Of a stretch of 64,000 bases of DNA, positions 2,570 to 27,215 are shown piece after piece (position 1 is the stretch's first letter; the number at the start of each line of letters is the position of its first letter). The notes below the pieces were generated by a model, which was not told the DNA's origin, made no database searches, and saw only the letters and a list, made by a program, of their open reading frames with translations. Source of the DNA: Alphaproteobacteria bacterium (GTDB taxonomy: Bacteria; Pseudomonadota; Alphaproteobacteria; SP197); assembly GCA_964291265.2 (NCBI GenBank), contig OZ219747.1, positions 3,808,001 through 3,872,000 of the forward strand, in the 5' to 3' direction. The translations under genes were made by a program, and so were the position numbers.

Positions 2570-2850
2570 GAAGACCGGGAACGGGTGTTTCCCGTGTCGG
2601 CATACGGAATGAAGCCGGGTTGCCTCGCCTTCGCATCCACGACTGACGACACACCTGGGTACGCACAGGGCGTCATCATGAACGGCGTCGAGCTCAACAC
2701 GGTCGGACGGTTGCTCGTACCCGCCAGCGCGAGACCACCGCAATCTACATCCATCTCGGCGATGGCGCGCTGCGCGAAGCAACCCTAAAAACAGCAACTG
2801 TTGTCGTGTGCGCCATGGGGTACAAGGCGGAGGCGCCTCCAATGCCGGAT
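2570..2850 (+). pseudogene. Tyrosine recombinase/integrase C-terminal remnant
   Basis: Joining frames gives GLPRLRIHD*RHTW..QGVIMNGVELNTVGRLL..RQRETTAIYIHLGDGALREA, i.e. HxxRH box plus catalytic Tyr, with a stop and frameshifts. Confidence 0.75.
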
Positions 2851-3094
2851 GCGCCGGCTCTGGACTGGTTGTGACCTCGATCCCATTGCCCGTTGACCGG
2901 ACGACAGGGAGCCATCTGGCTCATGAACCGCTATCATGTTGATCCGCCGCGCAGCGCCGGCTACGTAAAGGGTGCCCACAGCATTCTGCGGGACAGTCAA
3001 CCGCTCGGGCCGCGTCGGACAAGCTCTATGTGGCGTTCATGGGGCCGGCCGGGCAAACTGCGTCTTTGTGGGTAAAGTAACGGTCTGGGACCAC

Positions 3095-4647
<1,553 letters not shown>

Positions 4648-4651
<4 letters not shown>

Positions 4652-4899
4652 GCATGGCGGTCGCGGGAATCATCGACCTGCCTGGCGGCTGTCCGCCCGC
4701 GCTTCGTGTCATGGTGGACGGATACGAAGAGGGTTACAACGATCTGTCTCACGAGTGCATGATTGTGAAAAGAAACCACCTCGATACGGGAACGGGATCC
4801 TGGCAGGAAAGGCACGATGACCCGGAAGGGTTGCCCTGCGGGAAGCCGGATGCGGCCGGAACCGTTGAGGCTCTGGTCTTGCGCCGCTCTTCCTGGTGA
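4648..4899 (+). CDS. Small hypothetical protein (83 aa) translationally coupled to hsdM
   Basis: ATGA overlap with hsdM stop; [18 protein letters not shown] resembles small phage/mobile-element hypotheticals. Confidence 0.5.
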
Positions 4900-4921
4900 A
4901 AGCTGTGCCGAAGGGCTGTTC

Positions 4922-5338
4922 ATGATCGATTACGGAAAATTCGAGTTGTCCCTGAAACGCTTGGAGGAGCAACATGACAACTACCAGTCGCTGGACGAAG
5001 GACTTTCAGAACTGACTCGGGAAGGGGTCGCCGAATCGGTCATTCAGCGCTTCGAGACCTGCTACGACTTCTTGTGGAGGGTGTTGAAAAGATACCTTAT
5101 CGAGAAACTCGGTATTGCCGAAGTGCCCAACAGTCCCAAGCCTCTCTTGCGGCTTGCACATGAAAACAATCTGTTCGCTTCTCCCCTGGAAGATTGGCTT
5201 GAATATGCGGAAGCGCGTATCAGTACGTCGCACGACTATGACGGCAAGAAAGCGAAAGCCTGCCTGGCATTGGTGCCCGCGTTCATCGAGGATGCCATAG
5301 GCCTTTGCCAGACGGTGACCGAGCAAACATGGGAATAG
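4922..5338 (+). CDS. HEPN-domain protein (HI0074/HepT-like toxin; nucleotidyltransferase substrate-binding family)
   Basis: VIQRFETCYD, SPKPLLRLA, and RISTSHDY = RX4HXY HEPN motif. Confidence 0.9.
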   Translation: MIDYGKFELSLKRLEEQHDNYQSLDEGLSELTREGVAESVIQRFETCYDFLWRVLKRYLIEKLGIAEVPNSPKPLLRLAHENNLFASPLEDWLEYAEARISTSHDYDGKKAKACLALVPAFIEDAIGLCQTVTEQTWE

Positions 5339-6945
5339 ACGTCTCCATCGACATCACCGCCGGGCAACGCGCAGACATTTTGGCCTTGCTCGAACGCCAC
5401 CTTCCGGACACCAAAGCCTGGGCGTACGGCTCCCGGGCCAGGTGGACCTCTCGCCCCCAGTCCGACATCGACATGGTGGTGTTCGCGACACCCGAACAGA
5501 AGCGCGCCGTTTCCGCCCTCCGGGAAGCGTTCGAGGAAAGCAGTCTTCCATTCCGGGTTGATCTGTTCGTCTGGGACGACGTGCCGAACTCTTTCCGTAC
5601 TCAAATTGAGCGAGACCATGTGGTTCTGGCAGACAATAATAAGACGAAGCGAAAGGAGTTTTTTCACCCTTTGTTTCCGCCACACTGGCAGTCTCGTTCT
5701 CTCCATTCCATGGCGACCTGGGTCAATGGAATTGCATTCCGAAACATCCAATTCTCTGAGACCGGGCGACCAGTCATCAAGATCGTCGAGCTCAAGGGAG
5801 GTATCAGTGGACAAACAAAATTCACTCAGCAGACATTTGATGAATCGATCTTGGTGCGGTCAGGCGACTTGCTTTTCTCCTGGTCTGGGCAACCAGAGAC
5901 ATCCATCGATGCATTTTGGTGGAAAGGCCCGGAAGGTTGGTTGAATCAGCATGTGTTTAAGGTTACCCCAAATGCGGAGCTTCATGTTGTCTTCTTTTAC
6001 TATATCCTGCGTTATCTGAGGCCGAACTTTGTCGACATCGCACGAAATAAGCAGACGACGGGTCTCGGTCATGTAACCAAGCGCGACCTCGAGAACATTG
6101 AAGTTTCTCAACCATCCCTCCCCGAACAGCGTGCGATCGCGGGCATCCTCGGCGCGCTGGACGACAAGATCGCCTTGAACCGCCGCATGAACGAGACGTT
6201 GGAGGCCATGGCGCGGGCAATCTTCAAGGACTGGTTCGTCGATTTCGGACCGGTCCGGGCGAAGATAGAAGGGCGCGCCCCTTACCTCGTTCCCGAACTG
6301 TGGGAACTATTTCCCGATGCGCTGGACGGCGACGGCAAGCCGGTCGGGTGGACGAGACTGCCTCTCGACAAGATCGCAAACTTCTTGAATGGTCTGGCTC
6401 TTCAAAAGTTTCCTGCTTTGGACCCTGGCGACAGTTTACCGGTCATCAAAATCGCAGAGTTGCGTGCAGGCATAACGTCCAAGTCTAGCCGGACCTCATA
6501 CGATATTCCAAACAGGTATATCGTGAGGGATGGTGACTTCTTGTTCTCTTGGTCGGGCAGCCTTCTTGCAAAGTTCTGGACCGAAGGAGAAGGAGCTCTA
6601 AACCAACACCTCTTCAAAGTGACTTCAGAGAGATTTCCACCATGGTTCGTCAGCCAGTCGGTCCTCCATCACTTGGAAGAGTTTCGGGCTATAGCAGCCT
6701 CGAAGGCAACAACCATGGGTCACATTCAACGACGGCACCTGAAGGAGGCAACAACGACTTTCCCCTCTGATGGCGTCCTTTCCTTGCTTGGCCCGTCGAT
6801 TGGTCCGCTGATAGAACACACCATCAAGAATAAGCTGGAGAGCCAAAAGCTTGCAGAAACGCGCGATCTTCTTCTTCCGAAGCTGATGTCCGGCGAAATC
6901 AGCCTTCGGGATGCGGAGCGCGCTGTGGAGGCGGTTGCGCCATGA
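5329..6945 (+). CDS. hsdS: Minimal nucleotidyltransferase (MNT/MntA-like) domain fused to type I R-M specificity subunit S
   Basis: N-terminal AYGSRARWTSRPQSDID (GSX10DXD) and SSLPFRVDL; then TRD1, EQRAIAGILGALDDKIALNRRMNETLEAMARAIFKDWFVDF, TRD2, LAETRDLLLPKLMSGEI, all in one open frame. Confidence 0.92.
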   Translation: MGIDVSIDITAGQRADILALLERHLPDTKAWAYGSRARWTSRPQSDIDMVVFATPEQKRAVSALREAFEESSLPFRVDLFVWDDVPNSFRTQIERDHVVLADNNKTKRKEFFHPLFPPHWQSRSLHSMATWVNGIAFRNIQFSETGRPVIKIVELKGGISGQTKFTQQTFDESILVRSGDLLFSWSGQPETSIDAFWWKGPEGWLNQHVFKVTPNAELHVVFFYYILRYLRPNFVDIARNKQTTGLGHVTKRDLENIEVSQPSLPEQRAIAGILGALDDKIALNRRMNETLEAMARAIFKDWFVDFGPVRAKIEGRAPYLVPELWELFPDALDGDGKPVGWTRLPLDKIANFLNGLALQKFPALDPGDSLPVIKIAELRAGITSKSSRTSYDIPNRYIVRDGDFLFSWSGSLLAKFWTEGEGALNQHLFKVTSERFPPWFVSQSVLHHLEEFRAIAASKATTMGHIQRRHLKEATTTFPSDGVLSLLGPSIGPLIEHTIKNKLESQKLAETRDLLLPKLMSGEISLRDAERAVEAVAP

Positions 6946-8126
6946 TCACGGACGAAGACATCAGCCGCCAACTCCGCCTGGGTGAGGACAGCCAGTGGGA
7001 ATTCAAGCGGGTCGAGTTCCGTGGCGACATACCGACCAGCCCACGCAGAGACGATTGGGCGGATGAACTGGGCGCGTTCGGCAACGCGGACGGCGGGACA
7101 TTGCTCTGTGGAGTGTCCGACGATGGAACAGTCCAAGGCATGTCGCGGGAGCAGATGGCGGCGCTGGATCACCTTCTTGTGGAGGTCAGCACCGACGCCC
7201 TTGAGCCGCCGCTGCGCATCGGCGTCCACCATAGGGAACTGAATGGCAGAGCATTCCTGCTGGTCGCAGTTCCACGCGGCGAAGCCCTGCATGAACGGAA
7301 CGGGCAGGCATTCGTCCGGGTCGGTGCGACCAAGCGGCGTCTGCGCAGGGACGAAGGTCTGAGGCTGGCGCAGAAGCGCGCGCAGAACCGCTACCTGTGG
7401 TTCGACAAGCAGAGTGTTCCCGAAACCGGCTTCGAGACACTCAGCGAACGCCTGTGGGAGCCGTTGCTCAGCGTGACGGCGGCGGCGGATCCACGGCGGG
7501 GACTGCGCAATCTCCGCCTGCTGGCGCAGGATGAAGCGGGCGTTGATCGAGCCACCGTGGCCGGCATTCTGCTTTGCACTCCTTCTCCGCATGACTGGTT
7601 GCCGCAAGCGACCATCGCGGCAACGCACTATCGCGGACTGGATCGCGCCTCGGGCCAGCTGGACGCGCAGGAGATTGCCGGACCGCTCCCCGAACAGATC
7701 GCGGACGCGGTCCGGTTCGTCGTTCGCAACATGCGTGTTTCCGCCCGCAAGACTCCGCAACGGGAAGATGTTGTCCAGTACAGCAAGGCCGCCGTGTTCG
7801 AGGCGGTGGTCAACGCGGTGGCGCACCGCGACTACTCCATGTCGTCCCGCAGGATCCGGCTCTCCATGTTCAAGGATCGCCTGGAGATCGATTCGCCCGG
7901 CGAGCTTCCGAACGGCATGACCATCGAAGGCATGGAGGACAGTCAGGCCACGCGCAACGAGGTGATCGCATCCGTGTTCGGGCGCGTCCCCGTCGCCAAT
8001 GTGGCCGGGTCCGGTCGTCGCAGGTACCTGATGGAACGCCGCGGGGACGGCGTGTCGATCATCCGCGCGGAAACCCAGGAGGCCACCGGTTTGCCGCCGG
8101 AATACAGATTGGTTGATGAATCGTAA
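6942..8126 (+). pseudogene. Schlafen/AlbA_2 + HATPase-like protein, N-terminal part (interrupted by IS66)
   Basis: GEDSQWEFK..GAFGNADGGTLLCGVSDDG (AlbA_2) and EAVVNAVAHRDY..RLEIDSPG (HATPase_c_4-like); stop codon comes from the IS end. Confidence 0.85.
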
Positions 8127-11254: not shown

Positions 11255-14458
<3,204 letters not shown>

Positions 14459-15401: not shown

Positions 15402-15722
15402 TCACGTATCCCTTCCGTAGCCGCGTGGCGGTTCGATGTCCTCGAGGGCCTCGATGTCGGCATCGGCGACGCTCTGCAGGCGTTCTCCGTAAGGCGTGTC
15501 ACGGAGGCTTTCGGGGATGCTGTCGAGGTGGTCACGCCATTCGTCCTGCAGGGAGCGCAGTTCGGCCACGGCGTCGTTCCAGCGTTGCGGTCGCGAGCGC
15601 CGGTCACGGTGCTTTGGGGTGTGGACGGGAGGGATGCCGGCCTTGCGCCGTTCCCGGTATCGCCGCTGCTTTTCGGCGGGCGTGAGGGGCATGAGTGGTC
15701 TCCTTGTGACGGACGTGGTCAT
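15402..15722 (-). CDS. Small conserved hypothetical protein of mobile elements
   Basis: ATGA overlap with the TOPRIM gene stop; LTPAEKQRRYRER..RSRPQRWNDAVAEL..IEPPRGYGRD. Confidence 0.75.
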   Translation of the reverse strand: MTTSVTRRPLMPLTPAEKQRRYRERRKAGIPPVHTPKHRDRRSRPQRWNDAVAELRSLQDEWRDHLDSIPESLRDTPYGERLQSVADADIEALEDIEPPRGYGRDT

Positions 15723-16612
15723 GATCTCGCTTGTGGTTCTTTGGTCCTGGCGTTGACGACGTCGTTCCAGTCGGCGTTTTCCGGCGGTCTGCGTCTGTGG
15801 AACGAGACGTGGGAGGGGAGCTTCATCTTTTTGCGCAGGGTTTCGGCCTGTCGCTCTCCGGCCTCGTCGTGGTCCTGGGCGAGGACGATGGTCCTGACGT
15901 TGGGCAGGCTGCTTGCGGCGAGGCTGATCTGTTCGTGCTGTCTTCGCGAGGGTGCCCCGGCGGTGGAGAGGAAGGCGTGGCTGGGGGGACATTGGTCGAT
16001 CTGGGCCAGGCTGAGGGCGTCGACGGCGCTTTCGGTGATGACGAGGGCCTCGAGGTCCGCGGCGGTTCCGGCGCGGACGGCGAACAGGCTTCGGGTTCCA
16101 CCGGTGGCGAAGCGTTTCGGTCCGTCGGGGGGACCGATCTCGAAGCCGGTGAGCTTTCGCTTCCTGTTGCGATGGGCGAAGAGGACGCGTCCGTTGTGGT
16201 CGCGGCGGACCAGGGGGCGGCAGGTGTCGAGGGTCTCCGGGAGGATGCCGCGCCCGGTGAGCCAGTCCGGGGCCGCATCGGGCGTTGCCGCGGCCCAGAG
16301 GCTGCGGAAGTCGCGTGGCGCGGTGTCGGGTGCTGTGAAGCGGGTGCAGATGTCGGCGAAGGCCAGTCCGCGGTTGAGCATGAAGTCGATGACGGTTCCG
16401 TTGTCTTCATCGTTCTGGGTGTTGAAGTAGACCCAGTGTCCGTTGTTGAGGCACTTCGTGACGAGCTTCGGCAGGCCGGGTGCGCACAGGACGGGGTTGG
16501 CGCGTGTCGAGGCCTGTTCGTCGCGGACGTATCCCCAGTCGGCGGCGATGCGTTCGAACGGCATGCGCTTGACGGCGTCGAAGTCGACGCGGCGGGGTTT
16601 ATCGGGTTTCAC
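15719..16612 (-). CDS. DUF3991/TOPRIM-domain primase-like protein
   Basis: GTVIDF, WLTGRGI, LTGFEI, LVITESAVDALS, LAQDHDEAG (DxD), ADWNDVV; GTG start overlapping the istB stop. Confidence 0.8.
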   Translation of the reverse strand: MKPDKPRRVDFDAVKRMPFERIAADWGYVRDEQASTRANPVLCAPGLPKLVTKCLNNGHWVYFNTQNDEDNGTVIDFMLNRGLAFADICTRFTAPDTAPRDFRSLWAAATPDAAPDWLTGRGILPETLDTCRPLVRRDHNGRVLFAHRNRKRKLTGFEIGPPDGPKRFATGGTRSLFAVRAGTAADLEALVITESAVDALSLAQIDQCPPSHAFLSTAGAPSRRQHEQISLAASSLPNVRTIVLAQDHDEAGERQAETLRKKMKLPSHVSFHRRRPPENADWNDVVNARTKEPQARS

Positions 16613-17300
16613 GCCTGAGCCGCCAGGAGTCGCTGTCGATGGAGATGAGGGTTGCGTCGTGCATGAGCCGGTCGACGGTGCCGGCGATGCCGGAGGCGCT
16701 GGGGAAGACGCGGTCCCACTGGGCGAAGGCGAGGCTTGTCGTGACCATGGTCGAGCGGCGCTGATAGCGCCGCGAGACGATGGCGTAGAGGATGTCGGCA
16801 TGGTGGCTTTCGAGGGTCACGTAGCCGATTTCGTCGAGGATGAGCAGGCGGGGCCTGGCGAGGATCGCGAGGCGGCGGCGCAGCTCGCTGCGCGAGACGG
16901 TCTCGGCGAGTGCCTCGAGCAGTTCCGGCGCCTTCTCGAAGCGGACGGTGTGGCCGTGCAGCAGGGCCTGGTGCGCCACGTTGGCGGCGATCATGGTCTT
17001 TCCGGTGCCCTGCCCGCCGACGAGCACGGCGTTGTCCGCACGGTCGACGAAGCCGAGGCCGAGGAGCGCTTCGACATGAGCCCGGCTGATGTCGCGCGGC
17101 CATGTCCAGTCGAAGTCCGCCAGGGGCTTGAAGGCGGGCAGCCGCGCCGCGGCGCGGCGGCGCTCGTGGCTGCGGGCCCTGCGGGCCTGTTCCTCGCCGC
17201 TGACCACCTCCTCGATCCATGCGGTCCCGGCGACCTCGTCCCAGCGTTCGACGAGCCCGTGGAGGCCGAGCGCCCGGGCACGCTCCCTGAGCTCGCTCAT
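16599..17300 (-). CDS. istB: IS21-family helper ATPase IstB
   Basis: DFDWTWP, GGQGTGKT (Walker A), LLILDEIGY (Walker B), VDRLMHDA. Confidence 0.93.
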   Translation of the reverse strand: MSELRERARALGLHGLVERWDEVAGTAWIEEVVSGEEQARRARSHERRRAAARLPAFKPLADFDWTWPRDISRAHVEALLGLGFVDRADNAVLVGGQGTGKTMIAANVAHQALLHGHTVRFEKAPELLEALAETVSRSELRRRLAILARPRLLILDEIGYVTLESHHADILYAIVSRRYQRRSTMVTTSLAFAQWDRVFPSASGIAGTVDRLMHDATLISIDSDSWRLRRETR

Positions 17301-18790
17301 GTCTTGTTCCTGGCGCTGGCTTCGGGCCTGTCGTAGGCGTCGAGAGCGGTCCCCCGCGGCGTCGTGCCACGGCCGCCGCGGCCGTCGTCGGCGATGCTGA
17401 GGGGCGGCAGGCCCTGCTCCCGGCGGCGCTCCTCGATGATGACGCGCACGGTTTCGGGGTGGCACGAGCCGCGCTCCAGCGCCGTGGCGACAGCCCGGTC
17501 GAGAGCGTCGGCGCCGTGCGCGTTGAGAAGCGTCTCCAGCATCCGGGCGCAGGAGGCCACGTTGCGCCCGTTGGTCCCGGCGCGCGCCAGCATCTCCTCG
17601 GCCCGCGGCACGGTGCGCAGGACCCGGTCGCGGACGCTCATGGAGCGGGCCCGCCGCTTGCCCGCGGCGATCGCCCTGGCATGCTCCGGATCGGTGACGG
17701 CCTGCTTCCTGTCGTAGGAGCGTCGGTGGCGCGCGACCTCGTCGGCGCCGTCGAGGATGCGAACCTCGTCGCGGTCGGCGACCAGCGTCAGCAGGGCCTT
17801 GGAGAAGCTACCCGGAACGCTGTAGTCGTTGGTGTCGAAGCGGGCGTGGCAGGTCTTGTCGATGCGCACCGGGCGGATCTCGTGATGCGGGAAGGGATCG
17901 GCGGGAAGGACGATCAGGTGCTCCCTCTCCCGGGCGAAGGCGTCCCGCACCAGGAGACTGTCGTCGTCCGGCCAGGGCCGCTCCGCGGCGGCGCCGAAGC
18001 ACCACTCCCGAACCGCGGCGTTGAGCTCGCCGAGCGGGACCGTGATGTCGCGCCCGGCGAAGAACCCGGTGCGCGCGAAGCGCACACGGCGTTCCACGCG
18101 GCCCTTCTCCTGCGGGCTCCTGGGCCAGGCGGCGCTCGGTTCGAAGGCATAGTGGGCCGCGAGGCCGAGCAGCATCGGATGATAGGTGACCGCCTTGCCG
18201 CGGCGCGTCACCACGGCACTCTTCAGGTTGTCGTACAGAAGCCTCCGCGGCACACCCCCGAATGCCGCGAAAGCCTCGACATGGCCTTGCAGGAAGCTGG
18301 CCATCCGCGCGTCGTGGAACAGGCTCAGGACAGTCTGGCGCGAGTAGCTGAGGGTGACGAGAAGCCCCATGAGCCTGCGCTCCGCCCGGCCGATGCGGAC
18401 CTTCCCGAACTCGGCCCAGTCAACCTGCGCCTGCTCGCCCGGAAGGAAGCTCAGCCGCAGCGACGGCTCGGGCCTCTTCACCGGCCTCAGCCCGAGGCGG
18501 CGCAGGTCGTGACGGAAGTGATCCTCGCCGCCGCGGTAGCCCAGAGCCACGACCTGTCGCCAGAGCGTGCTGGCCGGAAGGTCCGGCGACGCCTCAAGAC
18601 GCTCCCCGAGGAAGGCAACGAAGGGGTCGATGAGCTTGGCCCGCGGCCGCCGCTCCTGCCCCGACGCCTTGAGCGCCCGCGTCACCGTGCCGTGGTGCAC
18701 GCCGAGATGCCGGGCAATCGTCCCCACAGCCCAGCCCTCGGCCCGCGACAGCCGCACGATCGTCGCCCGCGTGTCCTCGTCGATCGCCAT
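17297..18790 (-). CDS. istA: IS21-family transposase IstA
   Basis: N-terminal HTH, PGEQAQVDW, LLYDNLKSAV, KGRVERRVR (DDE), FDTNDYSVP. Confidence 0.95.
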   Translation of the reverse strand: MAIDEDTRATIVRLSRAEGWAVGTIARHLGVHHGTVTRALKASGQERRPRAKLIDPFVAFLGERLEASPDLPASTLWRQVVALGYRGGEDHFRHDLRRLGLRPVKRPEPSLRLSFLPGEQAQVDWAEFGKVRIGRAERRLMGLLVTLSYSRQTVLSLFHDARMASFLQGHVEAFAAFGGVPRRLLYDNLKSAVVTRRGKAVTYHPMLLGLAAHYAFEPSAAWPRSPQEKGRVERRVRFARTGFFAGRDITVPLGELNAAVREWCFGAAAERPWPDDDSLLVRDAFAREREHLIVLPADPFPHHEIRPVRIDKTCHARFDTNDYSVPGSFSKALLTLVADRDEVRILDGADEVARHRRSYDRKQAVTDPEHARAIAAGKRRARSMSVRDRVLRTVPRAEEMLARAGTNGRNVASCARMLETLLNAHGADALDRAVATALERGSCHPETVRVIIEERRREQGLPPLSIADDGRGGRGTTPRGTALDAYDRPEASARNKT

Positions 18791-25904: not shown

Positions 25905-27215
25905 ATGCTGACACGCATTCACATTCAGGGCTACAAGTCGCTACACGATTGCAACGTTCGTCTGAAACCGCTCACTGCACTCGTCGGAGCCAACGCTTCA
26001 GGCAAGAGCAATGTCCTCGATGCACTGCAACTGCTGTCCCGTATCGCCGTCGGCCCGACGCTCAAGGACGCCTTCGAACCACCCTACCGGGGCAAGCCCC
26101 TCGAATCGTTCACACTGGGCTGCGAGGGCCTGAAGGGCCTGCTCGCGCGCGAGCGACTTGTTTTTTCCATCGAGGCTGACCTGCATCTTTCAGACTCCGT
26201 GGTCGAGGCTGTCGAGCGCGAAATCCGGGTCTTGCGCCAGCCGGGACGGGACAGTGCCTCTGGAGACCGCAGGACCCACTCCGCACGGGTGCGCATGCGC
26301 GACCTGCGATACCGGATCGCAGTGGAAATGATACCGCGAACCGGAGCGCTGCGTGTTTGCGATGAATATCTCGCTGCATTGAATCGAAAGGGTGAACCAA
26401 CTCGCAAGCCGCGTCCGTTTCTCGAGCGGCAGGGAGACAAGGTTCATCTCCGCCACGAAGGACAGTCGCACCCTACCTATATCGACCGATTCCTGGATCG
26501 CAGCATTCTGTCGATGCCTCACTACGCGCCCCATCACCCGCATCTCGCGGCAGCACGGCGAGAACTGGAAGGCTGGCTGTTCTTCTACTTCGAGCCCCGT
26601 GAACGAATGCGGGCGGCCTCTCCCGTGAAGGAAACACGTCATATCGGCGCGATGGGAGAAGACCTGGCATCCTTCCTGAACACGCTGAAAGCAAGCGATC
26701 CGGGCCGCTTCATGGGGGTGGAAAAGGCGCTGCGCTCCCTGATTCCCTCTATGGAAGGCATCGACGTCGAGATCAGCGACATTGGCGAAGTCGAAATTCG
26801 GCTGAGGGAAAATGGCGTTGCCGTGCCTGCCCGGGTCGTGTCCGAAGGCACCTTGCGCATGTTGGGCTTGCTGGCGCTTGCCGGGGCAAACGAAACTCCG
26901 ACACTCGTCGGTTTTGAAGAGCCCGAGAACGGTATCCACCCCCAACGCATCGAACTGGTTGCCGAACTGCTGAGAACACGGCAGCTCCTGGAGCCGGCTC
27001 AGTACATCGTCACCACTCACTCACCGATCCTGCCCGATCGCTTGCCCGAGGACTCCCTCTATGCGGTGCGCCGAAGGAACGGTTGCACCTGTGTCGATCC
27101 GCTTTCAGGGTGGGGGCCTCTTTCAAGGCGCTCGAGCATTGACGATGTGTTGTCGGAGCAGGAAGACCCGCTTCCTGTTTCCGTTCGCATGATGCGCGGC
27201 GACTTTGATGCATAG
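25905..27215 (+). CDS. AAA_21/ABC-type ATPase (defence-associated)
   Basis: GANASGKSN, SEGTLRML, FEEPENGIHP, TTHSP. Confidence 0.9.
   Translation: MLTRIHIQGYKSLHDCNVRLKPLTALVGANASGKSNVLDALQLLSRIAVGPTLKDAFEPPYRGKPLESFTLGCEGLKGLLARERLVFSIEADLHLSDSVVEAVEREIRVLRQPGRDSASGDRRTHSARVRMRDLRYRIAVEMIPRTGALRVCDEYLAALNRKGEPTRKPRPFLERQGDKVHLRHEGQSHPTYIDRFLDRSILSMPHYAPHHPHLAAARRELEGWLFFYFEPRERMRAASPVKETRHIGAMGEDLASFLNTLKASDPGRFMGVEKALRSLIPSMEGIDVEISDIGEVEIRLRENGVAVPARVVSEGTLRMLGLLALAGANETPTLVGFEEPENGIHPQRIELVAELLRTRQLLEPAQYIVTTHSPILPDRLPEDSLYAVRRRNGCTCVDPLSGWGPLSRRSSIDDVLSEQEDPLPVSVRMMRGDFDA

Follow-up and report, generated by a model that had tools for sequence, protein, structure and literature searches.

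The window analyzed here, 64,000 nucleotides (nt) of contig OZ219747.1 from an Alphaproteobacteria bacterium (GenBank assembly GCA_964291265.2; positions 3,808,001 to 3,872,000 of the forward strand), contains a type I restriction-modification (R-M) operon in which a gene for a putative HEPN toxin overlaps a gene whose predicted product begins with a minimal nucleotidyltransferase (MNT) domain, the putative antitoxin, and continues in frame into the specificity subunit HsdS. This architecture (MNT~HsdS) is real and widespread, joins two known systems, and is apparently undescribed. Its interpretation as a type VII HEPN/MNT pair that a type I R-M family has domesticated, with the supply of antitoxin functionally tied to HsdS, is one that we hold at even confidence. 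The frames of hsdM, hsdS, which has two target recognition domains (TRDs), and hsdR were all intact, as in a type I R-M system, and the features concerned were as follows (aa, amino acids).

3095..4651 (+): hsdM, type I N6-adenine methyltransferase, 518 aa, intact, with NPPF; PF02384 (3e-104) and PF12161
4922..5338 (+): HEPN toxin candidate, 138 aa, HI0074/NTase_sub_bind family; PF08780 (E = 5e-20)
5329..5640 (+): MNT domain, residues 1 to 104 of the fusion; PF18765 (7e-9) and PF01909; HI0073, 1no5 (E = 3e-35)
5641..5685 (+): linker between MNT and HsdS, short, variable, and stop-free, with a conserved internal start absent
5686..6945 (+): HsdS part, with TRD1, central conserved region, TRD2, and C-terminal conserved region; PF01420 and PADLOC Specificity_I models
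11255..14458 (+): hsdR, 1067 aa, intact; TIGR00348 (579 bits, above cut-off), PF04313, and PF11867

An earlier note on this DNA had reported an intact HEPN gene with RX4HXY between hsdM and hsdR, and the open reading frame (ORF) at 4922-5338 agreed, matching PF08780 and containing R99, H104, and Y106; the profile searches that the note proposed placed PF08780, PF18765/PF01909, and PF01420 where each was expected. The motifs R99-ISTS-H104-D-Y106 (RX4HXY) and Q42-R-F-E45 did not vary across an alignment of 40 homologues, and RX4HXY was kept in 107/109 HEPNs from fused loci. The protein aligned to structures 1jog and 8xdj, with Q42 and E45 falling on the QxxE stretch of the Legionella pneumophila toxin 8xdj, in which Q44/E47 are reported to be the metal site (PMC11586414). 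The ratio of nonsynonymous to synonymous substitution rates (dN/dS) was 0.07 to 0.21 against five relatives. The 138-aa product is a single domain, and no PrrC/RloC-type fusion to an ABC-ATPase was found in it. No PADLOC model matched the window HEPN, and the NCBIfam models TIGR01987 and NF047752 matched the locus below their cut-offs. Adjoining PF08780 and PF01909/PF18765 genes, above cut-offs and overlapping by 10 nt, place the pair in class I of HepT/MntA, which is defined by neighboring PF01934 or PF08780 and PF01909 genes and includes PF08780/PF01909 pairs (PMC7641770). By analogy with these systems, the HEPN protein probably acts as a toxic RNase that would cut RNA as a dimer, and the fused MNT likely silences it through adenosine monophosphate (AMP) added to Tyr106.

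The note had further described a complete MNT running in frame into a two-TRD HsdS, and this was corroborated by a single stop-free ORF of 538 aa, from the ATG at 5329 to 6945 (+ strand). Logan contigs from two runs, both belonging to one study that is possibly the source of the assembly, matched 5193-5832 exactly and 5193-6168 at all but 4 positions, without gaps; because these contigs bridge the junction unbroken, a hidden stop at that site is excluded. An assembly artifact as the cause of the fusion was ruled out by the bridging contigs and by recurrence of the fusion in homologues. The MNT lies at approximately residues 21 to 105 (PF18765/PF01909) and contains G34-S35-X10-D46-X-D48, plus D78 and W39; the GSX10DXD residues G34, S35, D46, and D48 were unvarying in three homologue alignments, and dN/dS for the domain was 0.13 to 0.24 (five relatives). 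PF01420 spanned residues 119 to 292, both HsdS halves were covered by PADLOC HsdS models, and TRD1 and TRD2 were 37% identical. In an AlphaFold model of the fusion (predicted local distance difference test [pLDDT], 90.7; predicted template modeling score [pTM], 0.77), the MNT part matched HI0073 (1no5; root mean square deviation of 1.5 Å over 100 residues) and the HsdS part matched the solved HsdS chains 1yf2, 1ydx, and 7vs4, with a pLDDT of <50 at linker residues 106 to 110. Complex prediction of the MNT with HsdM (residues 140 to 513) and the HsdS core scored 0.01 and yielded no answer.

In a linker survey of fusions, 0 to 20 residues separated the MNT from TRD1. The ancestral HsdS start and ribosome site were kept in only ~6/102 fusions, and since this start has decayed, HsdS is made with the MNT attached. 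The proposal that the antitoxin is built into HsdS thus holds, in that the fusion is covalent and most fusions retain no internal HsdS start. Dual translation giving free HsdS was considered and rejected, with a linker ATG and ribosome site observed in 7/116 versus 7.8 expected; an excess of GTG/TTG (56 versus 13.5 expected) sits within the last MNT strand and is explained by its protein sequence. MNT~HsdS proteins sit uncommented in databases, as PADLOC HsdS model PDLC03138 has an MNT at its start.

The layout was common in the genomes sampled, many of which are environmental metagenome-assembled genomes that perhaps share habitat and genes, so that counts are not independent. Among 80 metagenome loci anchored on the HEPN, 48 were fused, 16 were stand-alone pairs, 4 were unfused inside the R-M operon, 10 were cut by contig ends, and 2 were without room; the MNT directly followed the HEPN in 78/80 of these loci, and the remaining 2 stop at a contig edge. 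Of 80 genome loci anchored on the MNT, 64 were fused, 55 of them immediately preceded by a HEPN; a further 10 were stand-alone, 4 were unfused, and 2 had a nonsense codon. PF01420 was found on 119/120 of the best proteins by MNT query (own protein included), a search limited to protein lengths of 295 to 942 and thus no measure of fusion frequency. With the HsdS central region as the anchor, which does not favor MNT-bearing proteins, an MNT was present on 36 of the 120 top-ranked proteins, and a hand count drawn from two samples (301 and 401 genomes) found an MNT on 25/61 distinct HsdS matches, 21 of these with a HEPN directly upstream. In the MNT-anchored set, fused loci with a HEPN came from 12 named phyla. 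The earlier note had allowed that the fusion might be a singleton, which these genome samples rule out. Several MNT clades were fused to one HsdS family. In RefSeq, plasmid pZMOB01 of Zymomonas mobilis ATCC 10988 has the fused layout, annotated as plain subunit S. The MNT had no match in the phage collection, and the Zymomonas cassette had no DNA-level match in Escherichia coli genomes. An hsdSp deletion in Z. mobilis ZM4 (PMC8432527) was discarded as a test of the fusion, as the HsdS concerned is 420 aa, unfused, HEPN-less, and thus irrelevant.

Other cargo in the hsdM-hsdS slot comprised HicAB, Fic, ABC ATPase pairs, and AlbA. At one locus (L047:3575-5692), an HsdM with an attached MNT lies downstream of that MNT's own HEPN and is followed by a second HEPN and an MNT~half-HsdS. 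Tandem MNT-MNT-HsdS proteins were observed at loci L153, L177, and L340 and in proteins P0004, P0014, and P0257, often with a degenerate inner MNT, which suggests serial capture of new HEPN-MNT cassettes. In P0028, P0054, and others, DUF559 or GIY-YIG domains were inserted between the TRDs of MNT~HsdS.

One MNT residue followed the fused state. Position 39 was Trp in 115/124 fused versus 7/55 stand-alone domains in pooled sets (one search pattern required W/F, two long-branch rows were dropped, and cut and unfused-in-operon rows were uncounted), and in the HEPN-anchored set taken by itself, W/F occupied this position in 41/43 fused versus 2/15 stand-alone domains. When columns 38 to 40 were left out of the tree, a test of 25 independent pairs gave a mean of 14.9 that agreed and 0 that opposed (P ~6e-5), and the column was the best of 104 (next best, 0.03); the pair test on the HEPN tree gave 15.1 agreeing versus 0.25 opposing. 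Fused and free states were interleaved on the tree, with at least 25 changes, and many tree branches are unsupported. Position 39 also differed in a natural trio, being W in a fused Zymomonas copy, G in an unfused Acetobacter copy, and D in a stand-alone Zymomonas copy. Fused loci outnumbered unfused ones in the hsdM-hsdS slot by 48 to 4 (HEPN-anchored). In the C-terminal helix of the HEPN, acidic positions showed a weaker link to fusion (best P = 0.001 among 138 columns, nonsignificant after correction). Overall, the evidence for an adapted fusion is moderate.

Decay within the pair was one-sided. Pairwise identities of HEPN and MNT covaried (r = 0.83 over 181 pairs), and their substitution ratios indicate that purifying selection is acting on both domains. 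Among the 80 MNT-anchored loci, a set biased toward intact MNTs, 52 had both domains intact, 25 paired an intact MNT with a HEPN that was damaged, missing, or from a different clade, and 3 had both broken; 0/80 combined a broken MNT with an intact HEPN. Across all anchors, 9 of 230 MNT domains were flagged as broken by script, 2 of which have natural C-terminal stops, and 7/7 truly broken MNTs had either no adjoining HEPN (3) or one with E45 replaced, RX4H lost, or a truncation (4). The HEPN at L360, which reads QRFG and was scored intact by the script, is counted among these dead four, and 36 further HEPNs scored as motif-lost were not counted dead, several clades naturally having K for Q; E45 substitutions occurred in ~10 loci. 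Inner or second tandem MNTs decay after the loss of their partner, and orphan MNT~HsdS genes often retain a HEPN 3'-end remnant, so the loss of the HEPN looks recent. Such a pattern would be expected if the toxin were freely lost and the antitoxin lost only afterwards, and HEPN and MNT, considered as a toxin-antitoxin module alone, are very probably a live pair. The earlier picture of a toxic HEPN held by its MNT fits the intact motifs and the one-sided decay; a strict form of the note's interpretation as a whole is weakened by the stand-alone and unfused pairs and by HsdS breaks beside intact HEPNs. At L168 and L173 (~6169-6171), a nonsense codon occurs at the identical MNT position in two unrelated genomes, each with a dead HEPN adjoining, and short HEPN 3'-end remnants lie in front of the orphan MNT~HsdS genes of L161, L182, and L194.

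A further gene, absent from the earlier note, lies between hsdM and the HEPN gene.

4654..4899 (+): orfX, a conserved, acidic protein of ~81 aa that lacks annotation and has homologues in phages; the ATG at 4648 is an alternative start

Proteins of the orfX family (mean net charge, ~-7) preceded 33/116 fused loci with room versus 0/48 stand-alone pairs, that is, only R-M-linked loci in the sets sampled. The dN/dS of orfX was 0.36 to 0.63, its N terminus is somewhat degenerate in this genome by family alignment, and it was found in 1/150 relatives. The family has 2,973 representatives at an E value of 0.001 and is common in phages (162 viral stretches), with weak matches to PHROG 7217 in 19/38 members; HEPN, MNT, or hsd genes were found within 3 kb of an orfX homologue in 0/80 viral loci fetched. 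A model with a pLDDT of 75.8 had no fold match, and the best Atlas score, 0.80, is a lead only. As a guess, orfX might be a captured phage protein that acts on the R-M complex or on the toxin-antitoxin pair.

If the pair has been domesticated as proposed, every MNT would be an HsdS, and the antitoxin level would depend on how HsdS is made, folded, and turned over. For its solubility, HsdS commonly depends on HsdM. Loss or silencing of the operon, or HsdS that is degraded or unassembled, would leave new or de-AMPylated HEPN unmodified and lead to growth arrest, so that the pair would serve as an addiction module and as a slow dead-man switch tied to the specificity subunit. Several points weigh against this reading. 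Covalent AMPylation persists, so loss of the MNT would matter only for new HEPN or if the AMP were removed. The pair does not require fusion, given the 16/80 stand-alone pairs among HEPN-anchored loci, and Acetobacter plasmids carry the same pair in the same slot but unfused. Trp39 was missing in 7/25 and 23/34 fusions of the HsdS-anchored samples (W in 18/25 and 11/34), and with starred branches only, the pair test comprised 6 pairs (P = 0.125); as far as the alignments indicate, an MNT with Trp39 is almost always fused, but a fused MNT can lack Trp39. Fusions broken within the HsdS part adjoin an intact HEPN (L047, L339, and L136), and since the two coexist, the toxin does not keep hsdS intact over its full length; half an HsdS is able to dimerize, and long-read indels blur the count of broken HsdS parts. 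No clear protection of hsdM was found (broken or absent in 1/18 beside an intact HEPN versus 8/32; P = 0.13), and in a second operon of the same genome, hsdM is frameshifted and the accompanying HEPN intact, a case in which the HsdM of the first operon might complement. Orphan fused MNTs had a dN/dS of 0.19 (n = 8) versus 0.15 (n = 93; P = 0.68), with no relaxation in this small sample. A comparison of break rates in hsdM and hsdR (1 in 45,000 versus 18 in 52,000 residues) was set aside, as the script overlooked some breaks in hsdM and decay of hsdR is to be expected in any case.

Coupling to the R-M complex may instead be active, with a phage anti-restriction protein or DNA mimic on M2S1 switching the MNT off or freeing the HEPN, Trp39 lying in the coupling surface, and abortive infection following as for PrrC or Ronin. 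We regard this as plausible but rather unlikely; to act fast and allosterically against Ocr/ArdA-type proteins, such a guard would require a coupling mechanism. PrrC with EcoprrI (PMC3710099 and PMC12707154) and Ronin (bioRxiv 2023.04.06.535777) are precedents, and the linkage of Trp39 to fusion, the weaker acidic positions in the HEPN helix, the short distance between MNT and TRD1, the phage-type orfX upstream in R-M-linked loci only, and a PDB chain named Cmr1-MntA (9z7q), an MNT on another defense complex, are consistent with such a guard. In contrast, the linker is variable and of low confidence in the model, some fusions are of the Gly type and some operons have the pair unfused, PADLOC models do not match the HEPN, and a response to phage was seen in no result here. 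The earlier note had proposed a possible guarded R-M system, of which the intact motifs and the covalent MNT~HsdS stand, joined here by a fusion-tracking residue, while release of the toxin by phage anti-restriction proteins is supported by none of these results. Possible, if doubtful, is a widespread and so far undescribed guarded class of type I R-M systems in which M2S1 would keep the HEPN AMPylated until anti-restriction proteins, disassembly, or proteolysis ended this and brought on abortive infection, with Trp39 coupling the MNT to the complex and orfX as a third, regulatory part. Were it to exist, attachment of an MNT to a defense complex would, with Cmr1-MntA, be a general guard design.

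Passive carriage of the pair is unlikely in our view. Under it, the hsdM-hsdS junction would be a cassette hotspot at which a HEPN-first cassette loses its stop and rides on HsdS as a selfish pair, equal whether fused or free. This would explain why HicAB, Fic, ABC ATPase pairs, and AlbA occupy the same slot, why MNTs are also fused to HsdM (L047) and in tandem to older MNTs, and why DUF559 and GIY-YIG inserts are tolerated by this HsdS family; it agrees also with the changes between fused and free states and with the common embedding of genes in type I operons (bioRxiv 2024.01.29.577857). It does not sit well with the excess of fused over unfused copies in the slot, the change of Trp39 with fusion state, the decayed HsdS start, or the fusion of 25/61 unselected HsdS matches. 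Very improbable is a second job for the fused MNT in the R-M complex (with HsdM, HsdR, or a phage protein as its nucleotidylation substrate, or with a stabilizing effect on HsdS), with the HEPN as a dispensable passenger: although 9/64 fused anchors had no HEPN directly upstream, 8 of them motif-intact, and orphan MNTs showed no relaxed selection, all 7 broken MNTs were without a live HEPN, second MNTs in tandem decay once their partner is gone, and the HEPN remnants beside orphans suggest recent loss.

The domesticated pair resembles several known systems and differs from each. Class I HepT/MntA systems (Shewanella oneidensis SO_3166/SO_3165, PMC7641770; L. pneumophila HEPN-MNT, PMC11586414; HI0074/HI0073, PDB 1jog/1no5) share with it a PF08780 protein with RX4HXY and QxxE, an adjoining GSX10DXD MNT, and a 1no5-like fold; here, the HEPN gene comes first, a 538-aa HsdS carries the MNT at its N terminus, and most fused copies have Trp in place of the usual Gly, five residues past the motif Gly. 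The usual order, which is typical but nondefining, is a free small MNT gene 5' of the HEPN gene (PMC3710099) and was not found here; the same paper associates HEPN proteins with R-M loci, for which it foresees roles like that of PrrC, and its text mentions neither HsdS nor a specificity subunit. PrrC in EcoprrI, a type IC R-M system, is likewise a HEPN-family RNase encoded within an hsd operon with a proposed backup role, but it is an ABC-ATPase-HEPN fusion silenced by binding of the R-M enzyme, whereas here the HEPN is small and the antitoxin in HsdS is enzymatic. In Ronin (bioRxiv 10.1101/2023.04.06.535777), HsdMS is the antitoxin for a linked toxin that is freed by Ocr, ArdA, and Aop1; Ronin is hsdR-less with a 61-aa membrane toxin, whereas here hsdR is intact, the toxin candidate is a HEPN, and there is a dedicated nucleotidyltransferase domain. 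Cmr1-MntA (PDB 9z7q, 9z7v, and 9z7x), known from its chain name and a match at an E value of 0.004, also has an MNT on a defense-complex subunit, but this is a type III CRISPR subunit with the MNT at its C terminus (residues 351 to 431 of 438); no paper describing it was found in a full-text literature search, which did not extend to subscription papers. MNT stability and activity depend on the fusion partner in FhepTA (PMC13000451), where the MNT is fused to its own toxin, whereas here it is fused to HsdS and the HEPN is on a separate overlapping ORF. No description of an MNT fused to HsdS was found in the full-text literature (subscription papers and bioRxiv supplements outside the search).

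The known guards of restriction enzymes PrrC, Ronin, and PARIS act by binding. If the antitoxin is tied to HsdS as proposed, a covalent antitoxin enzyme in the specificity subunit would be a different wiring of cell arrest to the state of the restriction complex, and it would provide a physiological trigger for HEPN/MNT pairs, named as an open question in PMC7641770. The layout is common (~4 in 10 HsdS genes of this family in the sampled genomes), and annotation as plain "subunit S" hides the fusion. Removal of such an hsdS for transformability is predicted to be toxic unless the HEPN gene is removed too; Z. mobilis ATCC 10988 with pZMOB01 is a cultured example, and natural single-residue and fused/unfused comparisons exist.

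In the window, hsdS and hsdR are separated by 4.3 kb of a Schlafen/AlbA gene split by an IS66-like element, which the earlier note did not mention.

6942..8126 (+): Schlafen/AlbA_2 plus HATPase gene (albA), 5' part, interrupted by the insertion element; PF04326 and PF13749
8123..10578 (+): IS66-like element with a D12-class adenine methylase gene; PF03050 and PF02086
10579..11142 (+): Schlafen/AlbA gene, 3' part, 99% DNA identity to the second-operon copy

The element has 15-bp terminal inverted repeats, an 8-bp target duplication, and >10 near-identical copies in the genome, and it may have a polar effect on hsdR, which lies downstream. Neither a sigma-70 promoter nor a terminator was found in 2800-7000, and GC content falls from ~65% to 54% across HEPN and hsdS.

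The second operon of this genome (G000:C2 ~535600-544500; L035) carries an uninterrupted, 99% identical Schlafen/AlbA copy. DNA identity between the two operons was 99% for albA and hsdR and 88% for hsdM; the HEPN and MNT were 27% and 37% identical to those of the window, the TRDs differed, and the hsdS match was limited to the central and C-terminal conserved parts. Because hsdR is shared and the HEPN-MNT-TRD cassette is different, toxin and antitoxin have been exchanged together with the TRDs. The second hsdM and hsdR are frameshifted, and its albA, HEPN, and MNT~HsdS are intact. A third pair, a stand-alone HEPN-MNT of another clade, is located at G000:C2 1211840-1212827 (L036).

Directly 3' of hsdR, positions 15402-18790 (- strand) contain a TOPRIM/DUF3991 primase-like gene and an IS21-like transposase, with core genes (chorismate synthase) beyond; the operon is placed in a mobile patch because these genes flank hsdR before the core genes begin. 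An AAA_21/AbiEii-type ATPase at 25905-27215 (+ strand) is a candidate additional defense gene.

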